Sequence record: KX377933
Length of the DNA: 64,000 nucleotides
Source of the DNA: Escherichia phage vB_EcoM_Alf5
Strand: one strand, 5' to 3'
Below the pieces are notes generated by a model that was not told the origin of the DNA, did not search any database, and saw only the letters and a list, made by a program, of their open reading frames with translations. A program made the position numbers and the translations under genes. The first letter of the stretch is position 1. Each line of letters begins with the position of its first letter. Below, piece after piece: positions 26,701 through 36,777 of this stretch.

Positions 26701-29034
26701 ATGGCAGATTACAAGTTGAGTGAATTAAACTCAATTGATACAATTCGTTCAGACGACCTCCTTCATGTCAGGGTTAAAAAGAGACCTGAAATGCTGGGTG
26801 ATGAAGACCGTCGAATGACCTATCAAGACTTCTTAGCGTCTTTTAAACTAGAAAGATTTGTTCAGATTGCTGGTAGCACTATGACGGGTGACTTAGGGAT
26901 TGTTAAGTTACTTTATGGTGGTAAGGCAGTCTTTGACCCTACAGGCTCTTCTGAGATTACTATGGGGGATGTTTTAAAGACTTTTAAAATTAATGCAAAT
27001 GGTCTTAAACTAACTATTGCAGATGCTTCAAGGTCTGCAACTGTTTATCATACTCTTAATAAGCCAAGCCCTAATGAACTTGGGATGAGAACTAATGCTG
27101 AGAATGATGCTAGATATGCTAGATTAGAAGTACTAAATACTTTTAAGTCTAGGCAGACAATTGTAGCAGATGGTCAAGCACTGTTGTTAAGAAGTGCAAC
27201 TGATAGCCCTTCTCTCTATGTTAGAGGTCAAGACCCATCTGGAACTAATAAATGGTATGTTGGATTTAATACTTCAAATGTTCTTGGATTATCAAATGAA
27301 GCCTCTGGCACGACATTGACATTGGATTCAGCAGGTATTAATTCTAATAAGAATTTAAATATCACTGGTCAGGTTAAACCTTCAGACTGGTCTAACCTAG
27401 ATGATAGATACTTTACCCAAACATTGGCTAATCAAAGATTTGCACAGTTGGCTGGTAATAACACTTTTAACGGCACTAATACATTCAACCAACTGAGTGT
27501 TTTCAAAAAAGATGGTGAAGCAATTAGGCTACAGAATGCCAATGCTGCACAACCATTGTACATTAAAGCAATTGATAGCACAGGTGTCAACAGATGGTAC
27601 ATTGGTAATAGTAACGAAGGTGATAACGTAGCTCTAGAAAACTACAAAACTAGTGGCAAGATTACTGTAGGGACAAGTGTTAATATCAATAAAACACTAA
27701 CTGTAACTGGTCAAGTTCAACCTTCAGATTGGACTAACATTGACTCTAGATATATTCCGGCAGCAACATTAAGCACTCTTGCAAAAATTAATGCTAAGAA
27801 TACTTTTTCTCAAGGTCAGATTATTAAGGCTGATGGAGAGGGTATTAGGCTTCAAGGGGTAAATGATACTGGTGGTTTGTTCTTGCAAGGTTATACTTCT
27901 GATGGTGCTAAAAAGTGGTTTATGGGTACTAATGCTTCAGGAAACTTTACTATCAGGGAGATGGTGTTAGGTACTGAACTGTCTCTTAGAGAGAACTATA
28001 TCCAGTTTAATAAGAATGTAACAATCACTGGGCAGGTTCAACCATCAGACTGGACTAACCTAGATAAAAGGTACTATACCGGTTCAGCATCAAACGCCAG
28101 ATACATGTATGCAGGAAAAACTGGTGAAGGTGATAATGATGCTGCTATTGCTTGGGATGCTAAGACAGGGCTGTATAATGTCAAGACTGGAGCTACATCA
28201 TCAAATCTTTTACTTCAGTTATATCAGGGGTCTGAGTCATCTACACCGTCTGCGCAGCTAAGATTTAAATGGGCGAATGGTGGTATGTGGTATAGGACAT
28301 CAAGAGATGGTGTTGGCTTTGAGAAAAGTTGGGCTATGGTGTACACAACTGCACAGAAGCCAACCCCTTCAGATATTGGTGCATACACTAAAGCAGAAAC
28401 TGACCAGAAGATTGCACAGGCAGTAAGTGATTCAACAGACCTTAATAAAATCTACCCTGTTGGTATTGTAACGTGGTTTAACAGTAACGTTAACCCTAAT
28501 ACAGCACTGCCTGGTCTAACTTGGACGTACCTTAACAATGGTGTAGGTAGAACAATCAGGATTGCAGCAGCTAACGGTTCAGATGTTGCTACAACTGGTG
28601 GTTCAGATTCTGTAACGTTATCTGTTGGTAACTTACCTTCACACACACACAGTTTTTCTGCTACTACTTCGTCTTTTGACTACGGAACAAAAAACACTAA
28701 CACGACTGGTGCTCACACACACTCTGTAAGTGGTTCTACTTCATCTGCTGGTAACCACAGCCACTCTATTTCGTGGATTGGTCAGAACTCACAGCACTAT
28801 TCCGGTGGTGGTGGTGGTTACATTGGTACAGGGCCGGGTTACACCGATGCTAACGGTGCTCACACCCACTCTGTAAGTGGTACTGCCGCTTCTGCTGGTA
28901 ACCATGCTCACAGTGTTGGTATTGGTGCTCACAGTCATACAGTTAGTGGTAACACTGGTGGTACAGGTTCTGGTTCAGCATTTAGTGTTACTAACCAGTT
29001 CTATAAGTTAATGGCTTGGGTGAGGACTGCTTAA
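26701..29034 (+). CDS. tail fibre protein with tandem repeats and His-rich tip
   Basis: 777 aa; three ~110-aa tandem repeats each ending [IV]TGQV[KQ]PSDW[ST]N[LI]D.RY; C-terminal HxH repeats and tail ...[22 protein letters not shown], paralogous to 25506-26654. Confidence 0.65.
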
Positions 29035-29041
29035 TCCCTTA

Positions 29042-29070
29042 TTGACTGATTGTTAAGATGGTGTTAATAT
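29042..29070 (+). promoter_or_regulatory. sigma70-like promoter (TTGACT-17-TAATAT)
   Basis: TTGACT 29042-29047, 17-nt spacer, TAATAT 29065-29070, upstream of the ORF at 29114. Confidence 0.5.
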
Positions 29071-29113
29071 TCTTTATAAGTATTCTCACCATCTTGGCTG
29101 ATGAGGTGATTAA

Positions 29114-29308
29114 ATGCCTACAATCCTAGCAATTCTCCTAAAAAATCTAGGTAGTTTCTTCTGGAAACTCATTTTATCTCTTCTAAGTGAATACATGATT
29201 GAGAAAGTGTTCTTTAAGCTTGCAAGATACCTTGCGGGTAAGACAGACACGCCTATTGATGATGAATTCGTAGATAACTTAGAAAAAGCTTTTAAGGGGG
29301 AGAAATAA
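29114..29308 (+). CDS. small hydrophobic protein (holin-like candidate)
   Basis: 64 aa; hydrophobic N-terminus ILAILLKNLGSFFWKLILSLL; follows promoter at 29042. Confidence 0.35.
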   Translation: MPTILAILLKNLGSFFWKLILSLLSEYMIEKVFFKLARYLAGKTDTPIDDEFVDNLEKAFKGEK

Positions 29309-29680
29309 ATGAAGTGGATAGAGGAAGCTTTTAAAAATAATATTGGTGCAATTGTTGTTGGTATTTTTAGTGTTATTGGGATGTATACCACGAAGCAAGT
29401 TTCAAGTGGTAAGCAAGAGGTGTCTGTCACAACAAAATTACAGCAGCTAGATAATTATAGCAAATCTAATTACTCAGCTATTCGTGATTTACAGTCTGAC
29501 ATAAGACTTATTCAGTTAGGGATGGAGAACCAGAAAGTTCAGTTAGAGAATGTTAAGGGTGAGAATGCAAAACTTACCAAAACTCTTGATAAATTCTCTG
29601 ACAGTGTGAATAATCTGGCTCAATCAGTATCAGCCCTCCAAGCTATTACTGAAAAGAACACAAAGAATACTGAAAAATAA
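29309..29680 (+). CDS. membrane-anchored coiled-coil protein
   Basis: 123 aa; N-terminal helix IGAIVVGIFSVIGMY then heptad-like Q/L/N-rich region. Confidence 0.4.
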   Translation: MKWIEEAFKNNIGAIVVGIFSVIGMYTTKQVSSGKQEVSVTTKLQQLDNYSKSNYSAIRDLQSDIRLIQLGMENQKVQLENVKGENAKLTKTLDKFSDSVNNLAQSVSALQAITEKNTKNTEK

Positions 29681-29682
29681 AA

Positions 29683-29722
29683 TTTAAGGCTCCTTTTTAC
29701 GGGAGCCTTTTTTTTTTTTTTG
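29683..29722. terminator. bidirectional intrinsic terminator between convergent genes
   Basis: GGCTCC-TTTTTAC-GGGAGCC hairpin flanked by a 14-nt T-run; lies between plus-strand stop 29680 and minus-strand stop 29725. Confidence 0.7.
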
Positions 29723-29724
29723 TT

Positions 29725-30624
29725 TTACTTACCTACTGACAGAGGTGCTTCAATCTTTCCTGCATGTTGGTAGTTGCTAATACCACCAATAAAATCACTT
29801 GCGGTAAGGTGTTTTAGGTCACTTATCGTGTTAAGCTGCACACCAATCTCAAAAGTAGGCGCATGGAACTCTTTATTGTTCATCAGTTCATAAACCTGCT
29901 TCATATGGTTCTGATAAATCTGAGTATCCCCAAAGACACCTATCAAGTACCGTGGAGTATATCCAGTCATCTTGCAAAGTACTTCCAGAATAAAACCATA
30001 AGATGCAATGTTAAATGGAAGACCTAAAAAGGTGTCTACAGAACGTTGATACCATTGTAAGTCAACTTCACCCTCGTTAGTGATATAAATCTGAAACAGA
30101 ACATGACAAGGTGCTAAAGCCATCGAGTTGGCTGCAATATCTGCTGCATTCCAAGCATTAACAAGCATGTAACGGTCTGTGATATCACCTTTCATCTTCG
30201 TTACTAAGGTCTCTAACTGGTCTACAACACAACCGTTATGACCTTCAAAGTTTCTCCACTGAACCCCGTAGATTCTACCACCTGCATCTTCTAACCAGTC
30301 TTGTTCAGAAGAATAGTTAGAGCTTAACCAACGTTTAAAATCATCTGACCAGATAGTCCAGCGTTCCCCATCATTTTCACCCCAAGTACGGTAGCGGAGT
30401 TCACCAAGTTTATTCTCACCATTCAGGAACCATAAAGCCTCCCCAATGACTTGCCGCGTAAACACCTGTTTAGATGTTAAGAGTGGGAAACCAGTTCTCA
30501 TATCAAAACGAAATTGTGGTGGAGCAAATGCAGAGATAACATCTCCAGTTCGTGTAGTACGCAGTTCACCAACTGATAAAACATGGTTCAGGATATTTTT
30601 GTAGCTTGTATCTGCTTGTGACAT
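29725..30624 (-). CDS. thyA: thymidylate synthase
   Basis: 299 aa with the conserved active-site stretch MALAPCHVLFQIYI. Confidence 0.85.
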   Translation of the reverse strand: MSQADTSYKNILNHVLSVGELRTTRTGDVISAFAPPQFRFDMRTGFPLLTSKQVFTRQVIGEALWFLNGENKLGELRYRTWGENDGERWTIWSDDFKRWLSSNYSSEQDWLEDAGGRIYGVQWRNFEGHNGCVVDQLETLVTKMKGDITDRYMLVNAWNAADIAANSMALAPCHVLFQIYITNEGEVDLQWYQRSVDTFLGLPFNIASYGFILEVLCKMTGYTPRYLIGVFGDTQIYQNHMKQVYELMNNKEFHAPTFEIGVQLNTISDLKHLTASDFIGGISNYQHAGKIEAPLSVGK

Positions 30625-30625
30625 A

Positions 30626-31171
30626 TTAAAAGTGCCCTTTTACTTGTGGAACATAGATTTCAAAAGTTGCTTTACCATCCTCTGATGGTTTTGACTGTAC
30701 CTTTGTAAACACACGGTTATCATACAGCTTCTCAAAGAAGTTTTCAAAAGGTAAATGCACAGTGGCCTCTTCAGTAACTTTATGGAAAACAGTATGGAAC
30801 ACCACACTAGCATACGGTAAAGCATTGACAAGGATACCTGCACCACCAATTACAAAGACATCTTCATCAATAGAGCTATCAAGATACTTCAAAAATGCTC
30901 CAAATGACTCTTTACTGGCTTTAGCATACATTACATCATCTTTGCCAAAGTCTATGCCTAAGTATGGTACAGAATTTGTTAAGATGAGGTTTGCACGTTC
31001 TGGTAAAGGTTTACTACCCAGAGTCTTAAAAGTCTTATTACCCATGACTACTAAGTTATTTTTAGTGAGTCTCTTAAACTCTTGCATGTCCTGTTTATGT
31101 CGAGGCCACGGCATACCAGTCGGTGTACCAAATTCACCGTTTTCACCACTTGCAAATATTAGTTTAATCAT
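30626..31171 (-). CDS. frd: dihydrofolate reductase
   Basis: 181 aa; N-terminus MIKLIFA...GMPW..., VVMGNKTF motif; adjacent to thyA. Confidence 0.8.
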   Translation of the reverse strand: MIKLIFASGENGEFGTPTGMPWPRHKQDMQEFKRLTKNNLVVMGNKTFKTLGSKPLPERANLILTNSVPYLGIDFGKDDVMYAKASKESFGAFLKYLDSSIDEDVFVIGGAGILVNALPYASVVFHTVFHKVTEEATVHLPFENFFEKLYDNRVFTKVQSKPSEDGKATFEIYVPQVKGHF

Positions 31172-31428
31172 TTTGTAAACCCTTTCTTAATGAACCAGTT
31201 GATGACACTCTTCACAAATTTACTACGATGGTAGATAAAATGTGGAGAGGGTTGGTATGAACCATAAGCCCAGAAAGCGATAATTTCATTACACCCTGTG
31301 CATCGGGTACTTTCTTCAGCAATATGACCGTTGACTATTTCACTTACCTCACCTTGTAAGTCTGTACACCCACAATGTGGACATCGGATAGGTGTTCCAT
31401 CAGACTCATAGCAGTGTTCAATTTTCAT
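31168..31428 (-). CDS. small zinc-ribbon protein
   Basis: 86 aa with CPHCGC...CTGC Cys pairs. Confidence 0.45.
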   Translation of the reverse strand: MKIEHCYESDGTPIRCPHCGCTDLQGEVSEIVNGHIAEESTRCTGCNEIIAFWAYGSYQPSPHFIYHRSKFVKSVINWFIKKGFTK

Positions 31429-31944
31429 TTATTTAACCTCAAAAACTGGCTCAAGAACCAATATAAAGTCTACACAGTCATCTTCTTCATCCAGAATACC
31501 ATCAAAGTTCTTAGGAACGAAGTCGAAGAGGCTCATAACAAAGCAGTCAGAAGTGACCTTGATAGTTCCTCCCATGTTCTCTACAGTCAACACTGTACGA
31601 CTTTCTTTTACCTCCCTCAGAAGATTACCCACAAAGTCGTCTAAGAAGTACTTCATCAGTGACTTGAAACCTTTAGGGTAATCTGTACCAGAGTATGTTT
31701 CAATCTGAGGAACAAGCTTAACATTTATACTAGTCTTTGTTAAGAACGTTTTAGAGAACATACTATCAGGTAACTTACAAACAGTCTTTCCAGTACCTTC
31801 ATGCTCAATCTCAACAAAACCAGCTTCGTCGCCACATGTAACTATTTTAAAAGATGCTTCATTCTCATACTGTGAAGCCATAAACTTTTTAAGCATCTCT
31901 TTAAGGAAGTCTGCATGAGCATCTTGTAAGAAGATATCAATCAT
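31429..31944 (-). CDS. hypothetical protein
   Basis: 171 aa ORF tightly packed in the minus-strand operon. Confidence 0.45.
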   Translation of the reverse strand: MIDIFLQDAHADFLKEMLKKFMASQYENEASFKIVTCGDEAGFVEIEHEGTGKTVCKLPDSMFSKTFLTKTSINVKLVPQIETYSGTDYPKGFKSLMKYFLDDFVGNLLREVKESRTVLTVENMGGTIKVTSDCFVMSLFDFVPKNFDGILDEEDDCVDFILVLEPVFEVK

Positions 31945-31957
31945 AGTTAATCACCTA

Positions 31958-32317
31958 TTATGGGAACAAACACTTAATGTCATCGTTTTTGAAAACAAAA
32001 CTTGTGTAATTATGACCATCAACATCCAGCCAAACAGCCTGAACATCTACACCATCAAGATTTTGGTAAAGCTCTTTGATGAAGTGGTCTTTTACAATCT
32101 GACTGCTAGTTGTTTCCAACTTAATGTTCGAGATTGCTGAACCTACAGCCATATAGCCCATGACACGTTTCTTCTCAGTATGCTTAATCTTACCATCTTT
32201 GTAAGCCATAATGAGATTGGAAAGAATCTTTACACCGTAATACTTTTCAAGGTGAGTAGGTACACCATAAAAGCCTAATGCGAAGTTTTCAGAGTGGATA
32301 ATGTTTTCACGTTTCAT
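31958..32317 (-). CDS. hypothetical protein
   Basis: 119 aa ORF in the same operon. Confidence 0.45.
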   Translation of the reverse strand: MKRENIIHSENFALGFYGVPTHLEKYYGVKILSNLIMAYKDGKIKHTEKKRVMGYMAVGSAISNIKLETTSSQIVKDHFIKELYQNLDGVDVQAVWLDVDGHNYTSFVFKNDDIKCLFP

Positions 32318-32318
32318 A

Positions 32319-32648
32319 CTAGTCTGCCAACCTTAAATTGAAATTAACACCAAATTTTTCACATACTTCCAACATATACTCAAGGGAAACATTACCAGTG
32401 AGGTGGATTATGTTGGATACACGAGCCTGAGAGATACCACAAATTTTAGCAACTTGCTCTTGAGAAAGACCTCTTGATTTAATCTCTCTCTTAAAACGAT
32501 GTGCAACGAAGTCTCTCATTTCATCTACATCCATTGGACAAATATAACTCTCCATTTCAGCCTCTCTATCAGCCTCCCAATCATCTTGTGGGGCATAAGG
32601 GTCAAAAACCTCATTCATCTTTCTTCTTCCGTTTGCGTGAAGTGTCAA
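32319..32648 (-). CDS. helix-turn-helix DNA-binding protein (XRE-like)
   Basis: C-terminal HTH-like stretch LSQEQVAKICGISQARVSNI; acidic N-terminus. Confidence 0.5.
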   Translation of the reverse strand: MTLHANGRRKMNEVFDPYAPQDDWEADREAEMESYICPMDVDEMRDFVAHRFKREIKSRGLSQEQVAKICGISQARVSNIIHLTGNVSLEYMLEVCEKFGVNFNLRLAD

Positions 32649-32823
32649 TCAATGAATCTATGTTTGTAGCCCTAACCTTTTCACGTTCATCATTAAGATA
32701 ATCGTCAAGAGCCTTTTCAATCTGTGAATCATCTTGACAGATGACTGTAAAGACTGTAAAGCCGTCTGTATCGTCAATTATCTTACCATAACCGCTTCTG
32801 GGATGTAACTTTTTAAGAGCCAT
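32611..32823 (-). CDS. hypothetical small protein
   Basis: 70 aa ORF overlapping the downstream gene start. Confidence 0.35.
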   Translation of the reverse strand: MALKKLHPRSGYGKIIDDTDGFTVFTVICQDDSQIEKALDDYLNDEREKVRATNIDSLIDTSRKRKKKDE

Positions 32824-32824
32824 A

Positions 32825-33208
32825 TTAGATACCTGTGCAGCTTCTGTTTTCTAAGAAATACTCAACACCATACATAGCTTTTTGCATCAAATCTTCTTTA
32901 AACTGGATACGATGGTTGAGCATAGCCTGTACATCAATATCATCATGGTGCTTCTCTTTAATATTTGCAGATTGCAGGAAATACTCTGCAAGAACGCGAT
33001 ACTGGTAGTCAGTTACCTTATCAGTCATCTCTGTCAAAGACTCTTCAGAGATTGGTTTAAGTAGCTCACCATTAGCTAGAGCAACACCTTTTACAATCTG
33101 GCAAGTATCCTCTGGAACACCTGATAAGTCCACATTTGGAAGTTCTGTTGCATTGACTGGTAAATTCATTGCCATAACCATTGCAGCAGCTAATAAAATC
33201 TTTTTCAT
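32825..33208 (-). CDS. secreted/periplasmic protein (signal peptide)
   Basis: N-terminus MKKILLAAAMVMAMNLPVNA looks like a cleavable signal peptide. Confidence 0.5.
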   Translation of the reverse strand: MKKILLAAAMVMAMNLPVNATELPNVDLSGVPEDTCQIVKGVALANGELLKPISEESLTEMTDKVTDYQYRVLAEYFLQSANIKEKHHDDIDVQAMLNHRIQFKEDLMQKAMYGVEYFLENRSCTGI

Positions 33209-33299
33209 AATGACCTCAAAGTTATATTAAATTTTGTATTACATTGAGTATAAAAATAAGCTATAACACCTGACTTGTCAACAGATTTTATAGCTTATT

Positions 33300-33600
33300 T
33301 GGCAGATTTTTTATAAGGCTACTGCCATCCTTCCATACCTTACCTTACCACACCTAACCATACCTAACCAAACTACACCATACAATACCTTGTTAAAAGA
33401 CCCTCTTAAAGACCTTTTAAAAAGGTAAGTCTCATTTTAATGTAGCTGAGACTAACTACCCGCACCTTACATCGCCATACCCAACCAAACCCAACCAGAC
33501 CGCACCTTACAGCGCCTAACCTTACCTGACCGAACCATACCTTATTAAAAGACCCTCTTAAAGACCTTTTAAAAAGGAGCCTCCGAAGAGGCTGCCTAGT
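33300..33600. repeat. composite repeat element, copy set 1
   Basis: Two G-free C-rich blocks with CC-heptamers every ~10 bp (33323-33393, 33462-33543), each followed by the 33-mer TTAAAAGACCCTCTTAAAGACCTTTTAAAAAGG (33393-33425, 33545-33577); hairpin AGTCTC/GAGACT at 33425-33461. Confidence 0.7.
33577..33600 (-). terminator. intrinsic terminator (minus strand)
   Basis: On the minus strand GCCTC-TTCG-GAGGC hairpin followed by a T-run, just after the stop of gene 33605-34045. Confidence 0.55.
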
Positions 33601-33604
33601 CAAC

Positions 33605-34045
33605 TTAGAAAGGTTTTCTACGTTGCTTGTTAATGTTAGCCTTCATAGCAGCTAAATGGTTTTGCTGTTCAATCAGTCGTGAACGTTCTTGATGGCTAAG
33701 TGCCATAGTGTTCACATTCTCAATCGCTTGAGTGGCTTGCTTTAAAGCTCGACCAATCTTACCAGACATTTTACGTTTTGCAATAGTTGCTTGATGCTTA
33801 GGTTCAACCACACGATAACCAACACCCATTGAAGCAACCAGATAAATCTTCTCTTCTTTAAGAAGCTTCTCAATAAACTTCTCAAGTCGGTTTAGACGTG
33901 TAAGCGCATAAGCCTTCATTTCATCTTCGTACTTAACAATGTCACCTTGATAAGTTGGCTTCACAATACCTAAGAAGGTGTCCATCTCAGAATGTGATAC
34001 AGTGTCACCGTAACTAAACTTTGCTGCTAATGCTTTCGTATTCAT
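33605..34045 (-). CDS. hypothetical protein
   Basis: 146 aa ORF; basic C-terminus. Confidence 0.45.
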   Translation of the reverse strand: MNTKALAAKFSYGDTVSHSEMDTFLGIVKPTYQGDIVKYEDEMKAYALTRLNRLEKFIEKLLKEEKIYLVASMGVGYRVVEPKHQATIAKRKMSGKIGRALKQATQAIENVNTMALSHQERSRLIEQQNHLAAMKANINKQRRKPF

Positions 34046-34047
34046 AA

Positions 34048-34653
<606 letters not shown>

Positions 34654-34699
34654 TTAGTTGATTGTTAAGTTGTTTGTAAAGAACCCTCAACAGAAGACT

Positions 34700-34965
34700 C
34701 TTTAGAAACTTGGTAGATTTTTAACGTGGCTACTACCATCCACCCATACCAGACCTAACCCGACCGCACCGAACCTGACCAGACCTCACAGCGCCACACC
34801 TCATTAAAAGACCCTGTTTAAAGACCTTTTAAAAAGGTAAGTCTCATTTTAATGTAGCTGAGACTAACTACCCATACCAAACAGCACCGCACTATGCCTT
34901 ACCCCACCTCACCGAGCCTCGCCCCACATCACTTAAAAAACCCTTTTCAAAGACTCTTAAGTGAT
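34700..34965. repeat. composite repeat element, copy set 2
   Basis: Second copy of GGCTACTRCCATCC + phased C-rich block + 33-mer (34804-34837) + identical hairpin GTAAGTCTCATTTTAATGTAGCTGAGACTAACTACCC (34838-34873) + second C-rich block and a degenerate 33-mer. Confidence 0.7.
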
Positions 34966-35181
34966 GTTGGTGAGTACCCGTTGGTTTATGCTGCTCAGTA
35001 TACTCACCAAATTTTCTATGTCAACAACTTTTTATAAAAAAGTTCTGATAGCTATATGTGTCACGAAACAAAAGATTGTAAACAAGACACCCATTGCAAA
35101 AGATGTGTCCAAAAGCTTACTTGCAACGTATGACAATACAAAGACAACCAGTATAAACAGAATGACTGTACTGAACATAGT

Positions 35182-36318
35182 TTATTCATAATCCCTAATA
35201 ACTAGCCCTACAGGGAACTGTAAAGACCCCTTACGAGTCATCTTCTGGAACTGAACCGTTAAAGGTTTCCCGATAAACTCTTCAGGGTGTTCAGCAAGAT
35301 ACTGTTTCTTCTCGTGAGTAGTCTTCCATGAAACATCTACAAAGACGTTAGGAAGAGTCTCTACAACGAACTTACCATGACCACGCTTATCGGTCTTGAC
35401 ACCAGTCACTTTAAACTCTTCAGTGTGCATCTTCTTGTGCTTAATCAAGAAGTATGAACGGTGACAACACTCATAGAAGGAGTCTTCAGAGATTGAACGG
35501 TACATTGCACCTTCAAACTTAGCTTCAACCCACTTATCATGAGCTTCATCAAACTCTTCCCAAGAATTTACACGGATAGTCTGTACAGGAACAACTCTAC
35601 AGGTATCCCCAAGCTCAACAATAGGTGAGTTATCAATAACTTCACGACGTTCAGGCCAAGATTTTGAATTGTCGCAGATATCATACCAGTAGAATTTAAG
35701 AAGGTGACGGTCTGGATTGTCAGCATTCTTAATCATAGACACAATGTCTTCTAAGTCCCAACCATGAGCATAAATCTCGCCATCAAAGTCTTCAACTTGT
35801 GGATGTAATTTAAGCAACAAAAGCAAATCTGGGATTAGTTCTTCTGGAACGTTGTAAACAGTATTCTCACGAGAATAAGCCGTGAAACTAACTGAATCAT
35901 CATCTCTTGAAATTCTACAACGAACACCATCAAGTTTTGGTTGAGCATCAGCAGGGAACTTCAGGTACTTCGCATGACTAACCTTTGCAGCATCATGAGC
36001 AAGCTGTACACCTACCTTCTCAGTATTCTGTGCAGACTCTTTTGTGTAAGCATAACCTTTACGGTCAACTTGCTTTTTATACTTAGCAGCAACTTCAAAG
36101 AGAGCTTGCTGTTCAGCGTTACGCTCATTCTTTTTACCGATGTTTTTAGGTTCTGCTGTATACTCTTCAAACATCATCTTGCCATTTTCTTTACCATAGG
36201 TTGTAATAACTTTGTCACCTACAGCAACGCATGACCAGACGTTGAAAGAGCCATCTTTATTTTGTTTGTATAGGATTGTCATTTTATTCCTCTGAGTGAT
36301 ACCAAGTGTTGCAAGCAT
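35182..36318 (-). CDS. ATP-dependent DNA ligase
   Basis: 378 aa; adenylation motif I KLDGVRC (KxDGxR). Confidence 0.75.
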   Translation of the reverse strand: MLATLGITQRNKMTILYKQNKDGSFNVWSCVAVGDKVITTYGKENGKMMFEEYTAEPKNIGKKNERNAEQQALFEVAAKYKKQVDRKGYAYTKESAQNTEKVGVQLAHDAAKVSHAKYLKFPADAQPKLDGVRCRISRDDDSVSFTAYSRENTVYNVPEELIPDLLLLLKLHPQVEDFDGEIYAHGWDLEDIVSMIKNADNPDRHLLKFYWYDICDNSKSWPERREVIDNSPIVELGDTCRVVPVQTIRVNSWEEFDEAHDKWVEAKFEGAMYRSISEDSFYECCHRSYFLIKHKKMHTEEFKVTGVKTDKRGHGKFVVETLPNVFVDVSWKTTHEKKQYLAEHPEEFIGKPLTVQFQKMTRKGSLQFPVGLVIRDYE

Positions 36319-36475
36319 TACATGCGTAAATCTCTAAGTCATTTTTATCCGGTTTATGAAAACAGTTTGCTCCGCAGTGGCAACGAAATGGCTTTCCACC
36401 AACTGTCAGGACGAAGGACTGAATCTTTCCATCAGGAGTTCGTACAGCATTTTTATGCTTATCTTCTTTGTTCAT
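36284..36475 (-). CDS. small zinc-ribbon protein
   Basis: 63 aa with CHCGANC...CNACN Cys pairs. Confidence 0.4.
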   Translation of the reverse strand: MNKEDKHKNAVRTPDGKIQSFVLTVGGKPFRCHCGANCFHKPDKNDLEIYACNACNTWYHSEE

Positions 36476-36777
36476 TTCCTCTTGCCACCAATTTCTACGT
36501 CAATAACTTGAACATCACCAGCAACATCAAACTTATGAATGATGCTTTCCACAGTGTAAGTCCAATCCTCAATGCGAACCAACTCACCTTCTCGTGGGAC
36601 GATTGGATTACGTTGAGCTACCGTTGTAGTGGAGTGAACAACATCATAACGATAGATATAGTTTACTAATACTTCCATCGTTAAAACCTCACTCAATAAC
36701 CGTAGTATGTGATTGACCATTTTTGCCATAGCTATAAGATGTTGTTGTTTGAGAGTTTGGGCATCTGACAACAACAA
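36472..36777 (-). CDS. hypothetical protein
   Basis: 101 aa ORF overlapping neighbours by 4 nt. Confidence 0.4.
   Translation of the reverse strand: MLLSDAQTLKQQHLIAMAKMVNHILRLLSEVLTMEVLVNYIYRYDVVHSTTTVAQRNPIVPREGELVRIEDWTYTVESIIHKFDVAGDVQVIDVEIGGKRK

Follow-up and report, generated by a model that had tools for sequence, protein, structure and literature searches.

The window analyzed here, a 64,000-nt stretch of the genome of Escherichia phage vB_EcoM_Alf5 (sequence record KX377933), is that of a Felixounavirus, a Felix O1/wV8-like E. coli myophage. We propose that six small genes in the window, called F to A in the order of transcription, would form the promoter-proximal part of an eight-gene operon, F-E-D-C-B-A-frd-td. 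The six would be an accessory block fixed in the lineage (Felixounavirus, Mooglevirus, and Suspvirus) and seated in a variable slot between the ligase gene and frd/td. The proposal includes tentative roles for the six proteins and takes the palindrome in front of F to be an RNA hairpin or terminator that belongs to the vrRNAs of a neighboring system, VIPR. As a whole, we give this explanation a probability of about 0.6. The genes are already known: they have been annotated since 2003, available in GenBank from the Felix O1 genome onward, and belong to PHROG families. They are real but ordinary: every Felix O1-type phage has them, and growth in the laboratory does not require them.

Layout of the Proposed Operon

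The six genes occupy 31168-33208 as a tight, co-oriented block of minus-strand ORFs (86, 171, 119, 99, 70, and 127 aa, from A to F). A preliminary description of this DNA had seen seven packed ORFs here; the packing holds, and the count is six, in agreement with the annotation of wV8, Tribble, Felix O1, and SUSP1. It had also called the ORFs mostly overlapping, which overstates the case: only E and D (8 nt) and A and frd (4 nt) overlap, and the remaining junctions are gaps of 0-13 nt. Finally, it had placed the block downstream of thyA/frd. Being on the minus strand, the six genes precede frd/thyA in transcription, within one and the same unit. The seventh gene of the operon is frd (dihydrofolate reductase; 30626..31171, minus strand) and the last is td, or thyA (thymidylate synthase; 29725..30624, minus strand). 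A bidirectional intrinsic terminator at 29686..29709, annotated in wV8, Tribble, and Felix O1, closes the operon. A terminator scan found no terminator-like site inside the six small genes; the sole such match inside the operon, at 30809-30790 within frd, is weak and has three G-C pairs. A search of the operon against Rfam returned no match. The host sigma-70 RNA polymerase would transcribe the eight-gene unit along the minus strand, starting at about 33281 and ending at the terminator, and translation is probably coupled at several of the junctions.

Orthologs of the six genes are found in identical order as Felix O1 ORF82-87, wV8 gp88-93, and SUSP1 gp031-037. The Felix O1 block shares 84-100% amino-acid identity with the six genes here, and the flanking frd/td and ligase are shared as well. 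Alf5 has a VIPR cassette between ligase and F that Felix O1 does not have; otherwise nothing material differs.

Conservation and Dispensability

Judged by their conservation, all six ORFs are real, constrained protein-coding genes rather than products of chance. Matches were found in 258 phage records, and the gene annotation is alike in every record inspected. Within the genus the genes are almost invariant (dN/dS 0-0.17, indicating purifying selection on all six), and in other genera the ORFs stay intact at 33-77% amino-acid identity. Between genera, B and F evolve two to four times faster than their neighbors (dN 0.55-0.69 vs. 0.14-0.33). The gene order is kept in Michonne, SUSP1/2, ESh22, and one metagenomic contig, and an extra, unrelated gene of 167 aa lies between C and B in Mooglevirus and Suspvirus.

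Phenotype and timing can be gauged from relatives. In a genome-wide CRISPRi-ART knock-down of SUSP1, gp029-gp037 were all scored "Not Fit" on E. coli K-12 (PMC11879866). The SUSP1 orthologs are therefore dispensable accessory genes, as judged by a screen that has an acknowledged false-negative rate and covers one laboratory host and SUSP1 instead of Alf5. In Felix O1, RT-PCR showed ORF83, 84, and 87 to peak at 25 min, which makes them middle and not immediate-early genes (PMC3185647). The literature yielded nothing specific on functional work, anti-defense, or superinfection exclusion for these genes of Ounavirinae.

That the block is a compact operon of small genes of unknown function, as first described, is borne out: five of the six proteins fall into function-unknown PHROGs and have no Pfam, NCBIfam, PADLOC, or PDB relative. 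Of the searches that the preliminary description had suggested, profile scans covered all six proteins (against Pfam, PHROGs, NCBIfam, and PADLOC) and fold searches covered the models of B and F. The profile scans turned up an HTH domain and otherwise only families whose function is not assigned. When A, B, C, and F were compared with PDB sequences, singly or as profiles, nothing matched, and PADLOC-DB held nothing significant for A, B, C, and E.

Proteins F, B, and A and the Question of Anti-Defense

Gene F (32825..33208, minus strand; 127 aa; Felix O1 ORF87, wV8 gp93, SUSP1 gp037; phrog_4332) is the fastest-evolving gene of the block, with 33-34% identity between genera, and its product is 100% identical to that of Felix O1 ORF87. 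F had been described as having a cleavable signal peptide, and a Sec-type signal peptide is what its sequence predicts: residues 1-20, MKKILLAAAMVMAMNLPVNA|TE, are of the classical, cleavable type, and the feature is kept in orthologs. By inspection, F has the marks of a substrate of Sec and signal peptidase I (a basic n-region, a hydrophobic core of at least 10 residues, small residues at -3/-1, and no lipobox Cys at +1). The parts are MKK, ILLAAAMVMAMNLPV, and V-N-A|T, the last being A-A-A|M or A-S-A|M in orthologs. There is no L-x-x-C lipobox in F, and residues 1-35 are without Cys in 15 of 15 sequences. The possibility that F is a bacterial lipoprotein, like the T5 Llp/Cor-type exclusion proteins, was rejected for want of the lipobox Cys. 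Cys36 and Cys124 are invariant in the 15 sequences.

The AlphaFold2 model of F has a pLDDT of 86, exceeding 95 over most of the mature part and falling below 50 in residues 1-18, which are disordered, as befits a signal peptide. Mature F is predicted with high confidence to be a three-helix bundle (helices 31-45, 55-86, and 93-121). Such a bundle is a generic fold and points to no mechanism for F. A Foldseek search of the PDB with F returned generic helical bundles only, none at E<1, and T4 Spackle and RI were absent from its 22 matches at E ≤ 10. By sequence, F has no similarity to PDB chains, and its one match in PADLOC-DB (PDC-M61B, E = 0.014, 12.2 bits) is not significant. We envisage that F would be exported and act in the cell envelope as a disulfide-stapled three-helix bundle, where it may keep out superinfecting phages or influence lysis or entry. 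T4 Spackle, a superinfection exclusion protein, and the T4 antiholin RI are presumably similar to F in being small, helical, equipped with a signal sequence, expressed before lysis, and dispensable in the laboratory.

Gene B (31429..31944, minus strand; 171 aa, pI 4.6; Felix O1 ORF83, SUSP1 gp032; phrog_4422) is predicted to encode a two-lobed alpha/beta protein in which a helix and four strands occur twice over. One of five models is confident (82.6; the others 69-72), and there is no confident structural match. Fold searches of the PDB and BFVD with the models of B and F found no match, anti-defense proteins included. Despite the repeated helix-strand model, an internal tandem duplication was rejected, as the self-alignment of the sequence is not significant (z = 0.26). 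A DNA sliding-clamp (processivity) fold was also rejected, the superposition on clamp domains falling short of significance. No relatives of B were detected outside Ounavirinae, and the B ortholog of SUSP2 is split by a frameshift.

Gene A (31168..31428, minus strand; 86 aa; Felix O1 ORF82, SUSP1 gp031; phrog_2993) encodes, from its sequence, the zinc ribbon that had been proposed: the CxxC...CxxC pattern consists of C16, C19, C43, and C46, and all four Cys are kept across genera. The zinc-ribbon part has relatives in T4-like, Pseudomonas, and Vibrio phages, and beyond it A has a conserved C-terminal helix. The small prophage zinc-ribbon proteins of the Lar and ECs_2282 type are of similar length, have a four-Cys ribbon, and match A weakly but repeatedly. 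The scores, however, are about half the curated cut-offs, and the extra C-terminal helix is A's own. Against Lar (TIGR03655, cut-off 39.6), A scored 17.5 bits and its SUSP1 ortholog 16.7; the latter scored 13.7 against PF14354 (cut-off 28.6). Scores for the ECs_2282 family (NF047912) were 14.2-21.1 bits in four relatives, where the cut-off is 37.

Blocks of this kind were initially thought likely to serve host takeover or anti-defense, and the six genes could be such an island, each small protein neutralizing host immunity or shutting down a host function. That the orthologs are dispensable in E. coli K-12, a defense-poor host, would fit, and so would the acidity of B and the rapid divergence of B and F; on the other hand, neither B nor F matches any solved structure of an anti-defense protein. 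The SUSP2 frameshift and the extra gene between C and B indicate gene flux. Against this, F, E, D, and B are in all of the about 257 related phage records (257-259) and nearly invariant in the genus, whereas the VIPR cassette varies, vipr being in 116 records only, and it is typical of counter-defense loci to differ among close relatives. The likeness of A to the Lar restriction-alleviation proteins recurs, but far under the cut-offs. Expression in Felix O1 is middle, not immediate-early, and F, being predicted to be exported, cannot therefore meet cytoplasmic defense systems. Dispensability and the fast change of B and F thus speak for the original suggestion, and ubiquity, near-invariance, timing, and the lack of structural matches speak against it. 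We consider an anti-defense island possible but unlikely. Under the accessory-block proposal, A, B, and C would be accessory factors of the cytoplasm, of importance only in certain hosts or under certain conditions.

The Putative Promoter Region, VIPR, and the HTH Protein D

The "phased repeats" that adjoin the block are the vrRNA arrays of a VIPR system. The system, described in phage SUSP1, is recognized by its vipr and vap genes and by arrays on either side of them that have 9-16 GGY/NN repeats and a conserved tail (bioRxiv 10.64898/2026.04.26.720920). All of these are present at 33299..34933 (minus strand), outside the operon: vipr at 34048-34635, vap at 33605-34045, a terminator of the locus at 33593-33578, and GGY/NN arrays at 34933-34864, 34800-34736, 33541-33452, and 33389-33325, all on the minus strand. 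The four arrays have 13-18 five-nt units as parsed, with the last two to three units of each entering the conserved tail. The VIPR proteins of SUSP2, a Suspvirus like the type phage SUSP1, are 98-99% identical to those of the cassette (33605-34635). The arrays are arranged 2+2 in Alf5 and 1+3 in SUSP1. The six-gene operon is independent of VIPR because it is present in phages without VIPR. Also, under the published 1-nt-skip rule, no match of the vrRNAs to the operon or the rest of their own phage exceeded 22 of 36 positions, a chance level.

Two promoter-like sequences precede F. P2 (33253..33281, minus strand; TTGACA, 17 nt, TATTTT) lies 45 nt upstream of F, and a conserved TATACT is present 1 nt farther downstream. 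P2 is a consensus match only (10 of 12 positions), and the number of sites in the promoter scan did not exceed that in shuffled sequence. P1 (34997..35024, minus strand; TTGACA, 16 nt, TATACT; 11 of 12 matches) is directly past the ligase cluster and corresponds to the single promoter that immediately precedes F in phages without VIPR. Read-through from P1 may add to transcription of the operon.

Gene D (32319..32618, minus strand; 99 aa; Felix O1 ORF85, wV8 gp91, SUSP1 gp035) encodes a Cro/C1 HTH protein. As first described, it is of the XRE type with an acidic N-terminus. It scores 39.7 bits against Pfam PF01381 (HTH_3; gathering threshold 23), with residues 43-93 aligned to profile positions 2-52 of 55, and matches phrog_1373 at 1.2e-25. 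The start is the ATG at 32618; a TTG extension to 109 aa is not kept in other genera. The recognition helix, ISQ(A/S)RVSNI, is invariant across five lineages. D has the five-helix HTH_3 domain of Cro/C1 phage regulators, but it differs from them in adding, outside the domain, an invariant acidic N-terminus of 34 residues (12 D/E and 2 K/R in the first 35) and in residing in a virulent phage without a lysogeny module. Its matches in PADLOC-DB are to generic HTH and control proteins only, and PDB sequence and profile searches with D gave nothing useful.

A link between D and the palindrome had been suggested from the start. The palindrome is real: 47 bp at 33254..33300, with 19-nt arms (33254-33272 and 33282-33300) that are 89% complementary (17 of 19 paired). 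It is unique in the window. As it covers the -35 and -10 boxes of P2 and is centered on TTGACA, the -35 hexamer sitting in the loop, D could repress the operon by binding there. The half-site, AAGCTATAA, occurs at the palindrome and at one other place in the 64 kb, and the palindrome is 100% conserved in Felix O1, SUSP1, and SUSP2. The link is weakened, however, by the Mooglevirus-type phages: in Michonne, ESh22, and the metagenomic relative, D is retained and its recognition helix is identical, but there is no such palindrome, and the promoters carry different inverted repeats. Moreover, the half-sites are 30 bp apart, center to center, which is unusual for one Cro/C1 dimer. The palindrome is present only where a vrRNA unit precedes F; its occurrence follows that of the vrRNA and not that of the HTH gene. 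It begins directly past the pseudoknot tail of the last vrRNA, is followed by TTTTTAT, and folds as an RNA hairpin with a U-run next to it (z = -3.0), much like a terminator or processing hairpin. Repression through the palindrome is thus doubtful. Most likely, the palindrome is a hairpin or terminator at the 3' end of the neighboring vrRNA array, and it is incidental that the -35 box of the operon promoter lies in it.

We prefer the view that a D dimer would bind near the promoter of its own operon and autoregulate, for which the AT-rich element ATACAAAATTTAATAT (33224..33239, minus strand), unique in the window, would be a better candidate site than the palindrome. It lies between the promoter and the ribosome-binding site of F, and its equivalent, ATA[C/G]AA[A/G]AT..ATAT, is at the same position in all five lineages. 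It may be nothing more than an AT-rich 5' UTR: when one mismatch was tolerated, 25 of 100 shuffled versions of the window had the pattern at least once. In the 64 kb, the palindrome half-site and the AT-rich element do not recur to any meaningful extent that would outline a regulon of D.

Genes C and E

Gene C (31958..32317, minus strand; 119 aa; Felix O1 ORF84, SUSP1 gp034; phrog_4116) is the sole gene of the six that spans the whole of Ounavirinae, the proteins of Erwinia and Hafnia phages being about 36% identical. These phages keep C alone, and their ligase-frd interval holds other genes. With C as the query, an exhaustive HMMER search across 1.84 billion representatives retrieved relatives in Ounavirinae and, apart from these, just three spurious repeat proteins, and C has no Pfam or PDB relative. 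The motif GFY...YYG led us to consider a degenerate GIY-YIG nuclease, which was rejected because neither Pfam nor the PDB gave a signal and the invariant residues are not suitably spaced.

The constancy of C beside ligase, frd, and td across the subfamily raises the possibility that the small proteins are accessory or regulatory subunits of these enzymes, for example, scaffolds of a dNTP-synthesis complex. The small genes share their operon with frd and td, and the stop of A overlaps the start of frd (ATGA). A and frd also share a distinct recombination history (dS 0.52-0.65, vs. 0.09-0.25 for their neighbors, in comparison with Felix O1). Yet none of the proteins is similar to any enzyme or known subunit, F is predicted to be secreted, and the Erwinia and Hafnia phages retain frd and td but lack F, E, D, B, and A in their ligase-frd interval. 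Enzyme subunits thus appear quite improbable.

Gene E (32611..32823, minus strand; 70 aa; Felix O1 ORF86, SUSP1 gp036; phrog_4473) has its stop overlapping the start of D. No relatives of E were detected outside Ounavirinae. Its C-terminal peptide, RATNIDSLIDTSRKRKKKDE, is almost invariant; as variation at synonymous sites is free, it is the protein sequence that is conserved. The overlap of a small gene with an XRE HTH gene is reminiscent of a toxin-antitoxin pair with D as the antitoxin, but this is very improbable, since the matches of D to antitoxin models are all far under the curated cut-offs (HigA 20.4 vs. 47.7, HipB 14.6 vs. 79, Y4mF 23.2 vs. 71.65, PezA 22.3 vs. 290), E matches no toxin family in Pfam, PADLOC, or NCBIfam, and SUSP1 tolerates knock-down of its D ortholog. 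We rather suppose that E would work with D, on the basis of the gene overlap, the invariant basic tail of E, and the invariant acidic N-terminus of D.

Significance

We hold it possible, rather than probable, that at least one of the proteins restricted to Ounavirinae founds a new functional family, the best candidates being F and B, with the E-D pair as a new regulator. If so, the exported, fast-evolving F would be a periplasmic factor of a new kind that excludes superinfecting phages or times lysis, and B, acidic and two-lobed, would be a counter-defense protein with a new fold. E-D would be a middle-gene regulator of a type new to this phage group.

In closing, Felix O1-type phages are widely used in typing, biocontrol, and therapy of Salmonella and E. 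coli. The discovery value of the block is small, and two modest points stand out. One is D as a candidate timing regulator; the Felix O1 ORF table flags it as the regulator candidate in this part of the genome. The other is the overlap of promoter and vrRNA hairpin: as the block borders the VIPR locus, those who study or engineer VIPR should be aware that the promoter of the operon and the hairpin of the last vrRNA take up one stretch of DNA.

Gene Layout and Conservation

Megablast of 29000-36500 matched 258 phage records, all of them Ounavirinae myophages of the Felix O1/wV8 type and the closest being Escherichia phages vB_Eco_Tribble, garuso and Barry (96-97% identity); the region is thus a well-sampled piece of a Felixounavirus genome. 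Elsewhere in the window, 24 clustered tRNA genes lie on the plus strand (546-5797), as expected in Felix O1-like phages.

The preliminary description had seven small ORFs downstream of thyA/frd. There are six, all on the minus strand: A (31168-31428, 86 aa), B (31429-31944, 171 aa), C (31958-32317, 119 aa), D (32319-32618, 99 aa counted from the ATG), E (32611-32823, 70 aa) and F (32825-33208, 127 aa). They match annotated genes exactly (wV8 gp88-93, Tribble, Felix O1 ORF82-87, SUSP1 gp031-037) and are transcriptionally upstream of the co-oriented frd (30626-31171, minus) and td (29725-30624, minus). The junctions are tight, as described, but overlaps are confined to E/D (8 nt) and A/frd (4 nt); B and A abut, F/E, D/C and frd/td are separated by 1 nt each, and C/B by 13 nt. 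A 109-aa, TTG-started D from the original Felix O1 table is not supported: other genera have stop codons in the frame upstream and lack a start codon there.

A-F are real genes. They are intact and in the same order in Mooglevirus (Michonne, ESh22), Suspvirus (SUSP1, SUSP2) and a metagenomic relative, dN/dS within the genus is 0-0.17 for each, and F, E, D and B occur in 257-259 records apiece, that is, in every related phage. Amino acid identity to Michonne is 34% for F, 54% for E, 72% for D, 71% for C, 41% for B and 59% for A, as against 67% for frd, 78% for td and 90% for the ligase. Only C is retained in Erwinia and Hafnia phages, where the ligase-frd interval holds other genes.

An additional 167-aa gene (phrog_9143), unrelated to B and missing from Felixounavirus, lies between C and B in Mooglevirus (L003, 5665-6168) and Suspvirus (L006, 5777-6277), and in SUSP2 the B ortholog is broken by a frameshift, which indicates some gene flux in the block between genera. 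A and frd (30626-31428) differ from Felix O1 by a dS of 0.52-0.65 (84-86% amino acid identity), whereas the genes on either side differ by 0.09-0.25 (97-100%); the pair therefore marks a separate recombination tract and is inherited together. Immediately after the ligase, a minus-strand ORF of 48 aa (35032-35178) with two hydrophobic helices shares about 40% identity with Michonne gp047 (49 aa). wV8, Tribble and Felix O1 leave it unannotated; it probably encodes a genuine small membrane protein.

The Six Proteins

The XRE-type protein with an acidic N-terminus noted earlier is D, a Cro/C1 HTH protein (HTH_3, 39.7 bits against a cut-off of 23; phrog_1373 at 1e-25). Its residues 1-34 include 12 acidic and 2 basic ones and, like the recognition helix, are invariant in five lineages. 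D probably autoregulates the operon, and E probably acts together with it. The C-terminal peptide of E, ending SRKRKKKDE, is almost invariant; since synonymous sites vary there, the constraint acts on the protein.

The cleavable signal peptide was likewise found, in F; it is typical and conserved in kind across genera, and by its sequence F probably works in the periplasm. An AlphaFold2 model of F from 15 sequences (pLDDT 86, above 95 over most of the mature part) predicts helices at 31-45, 55-86 and 93-121, and Cys36 and Cys124 are invariant. Foldseek matches in the PDB were all generic helical bundles and did not reach E<1. Gene 12 of Hafnia phage SarahDanielle (2057-2545 of its locus), sited before the ligase, may from its sequence be a distant relative of F: the match is weak though full-length (23% identity over 138 aa), and its E of 0.009 was computed in a tiny database.

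A, B and C would be cytoplasmic factors. The predicted zinc ribbon is borne out by four cysteines in A. Similarity of A to the ECs_2282 and Lar models is repeated but always sub-threshold, and some hypothetical early proteins of T4-like (JSE, RB49), Pseudomonas and Vibrio phages are related to its zinc-ribbon part. C has no relative beyond Ounavirinae among 1.84 billion representatives searched. PADLOC, NCBIfam and PDB sequence searches of the small proteins added nothing.

The Neighboring VIPR Locus

The "phased-repeat element" upstream of the block exists as GGY-NN pentamer arrays, but it is already explained as the vrRNA arrays of the published VIPR system, which consists of vipr (a RAMP homolog), vap and vrRNAs and has phage SUSP1 as its type example (bioRxiv 10.64898/2026.04.26.720920). 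The minus-strand interval 33299-35024 is a complete VIPR locus: a first pair of GGY/NN arrays (34933-34864, 34800-34736), vipr (34048-34635), vap (33605-34045), a terminator (33593-33578) and a second pair of arrays (33541-33452, 33389-33325), all on the minus strand. The two protein genes, next upstream of the operon genes, are missing in Michonne and Felix O1 and present in 116 of about 257 related records. They are 98-99% identical to those of SUSP2, against 32-80% for the operon genes, which argues that the cassette was recently exchanged. Decoded with the published 1-nt-skip rule, the four vrRNAs have no target in the 64 kb of the window, where the best match covers 22 of 36 positions; within it the phage is not self-targeting.

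Felix O1, without vipr and vap, keeps one vrRNA-like unit between ligase and ORF87 (3633-3914 of its locus, from NC_005282), with leader, GGY/NN repeats and pseudoknot tail, and the palindrome and promoter as in the window. This orphan vrRNA is a remnant or else could be used in trans on co-infection.

Promoter-like Sites and the Candidate Operator

Two minus-strand, sigma-70-like sites precede F: P2 (33281-33253; TTGACA, 17 nt, TATTTT) and the stronger P1 (35024-34997; TTGACA, 16 nt, TATACT), farther upstream, past the ligase cluster. As shuffled sequence would give just as many promoter-like sites (19.0 expected against 19 found), both are consensus matches only. There are no terminator-like sites inside the six small genes; the sole internal match is a weak one in frd (30809-30790, 3 G-C pairs), and a bidirectional terminator lies at 29686-29709. 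Within frd, upstream of td, is a promoter-like site (30719-30747, minus; TTGAAA, 17 nt, TATGAT; 10 of 12 matches). The phiEa21-4 record likewise annotates a promoter within frd, and in Felix O1 expression of frd and td peaks at 10 and 25 min, respectively.

The palindrome at 33254-33300 had been proposed as the site of the HTH protein. The last vrRNA ends in a pseudoknot tail, and the palindrome starts straight after it, with TTGACA in its loop; TTTTTAT comes next, and as RNA the palindrome forms a hairpin (z = -3.0). Felix O1, SUSP1 and SUSP2, each with a vrRNA unit ahead of F, carry it in identical form, yet it is missing from Michonne, ESh22 and the metagenomic relative, whose D has an unchanged recognition helix. 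Given the VIPR neighborhood, we infer that the palindrome is a vrRNA-array hairpin or terminator that would also supply the operon's -35 box. An AT-rich element, ATA(C/G)AA(A/G)AT..ATAT (33224-33239), follows the -10 TATACT and precedes the F ribosome-binding site; because it is common to all five lineages and unique in the window, we rate it above the palindrome as candidate D operator.

The three relatives without the palindrome have a single promoter, matching P1, bracketed by a different inverted repeat with co-varying arms. In Mooglevirus-type loci (L003, 4365-4440; L009, 5915-6000; L011, 3365-3440), where the ligase-proximal promoter stands ahead of F, the repeat surrounds that promoter's -10 box with the arms CCTGACGGG/CCCGTCAGG, CCTAGTAGG/CTTACTAGG and TTAGTGGG/CCCACTAG; in the window (34960-35010) the arms are GGTGAGTA/TACTCACC. 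The repeat may act as a symmetric site for a protein or as a hairpin in read-through RNA, e.g., an RNase III site.

Role and Standing of the Block

In Felix O1, RT-PCR placed the expression peak of ORF80, 83, 84, 87 and 88 at 25 min and of ORF81 at 10 min (PMC3185647). A dCas13d knock-down screen across the SUSP1 genome, whose authors acknowledge a false-negative rate, scored td (gp029), frd (gp030) and all of gp031-gp037 as "Not Fit," i.e., without measurable cost in E. coli K-12 (PMC11879866, supplementary file 16); gp031-gp037 correspond, in order, to A, B, the extra gene, C, D, E and F. The block is thus accessory under laboratory conditions.

Functional claims for A-F are weak. A service to nucleotide metabolism is suggested by position and by the recombination history common to A and frd, the only pointers to it. 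The anti-defence role first proposed has no positive support: it agrees with the dispensability of the block and with B and F diverging fast, but fits poorly with presence in every related phage, with genes that hardly vary inside the genus and with their middle-class timing.

That the genes form an eight-gene accessory operon, F-E-D-C-B-A-frd-td, fixed in the Felix O1-type clade, is well supported. The original observation was largely correct, small errors apart, and the A-F block is an ordinary one that was already catalogued. Of the features nearby, the VIPR locus is the most notable, and it too is already published.
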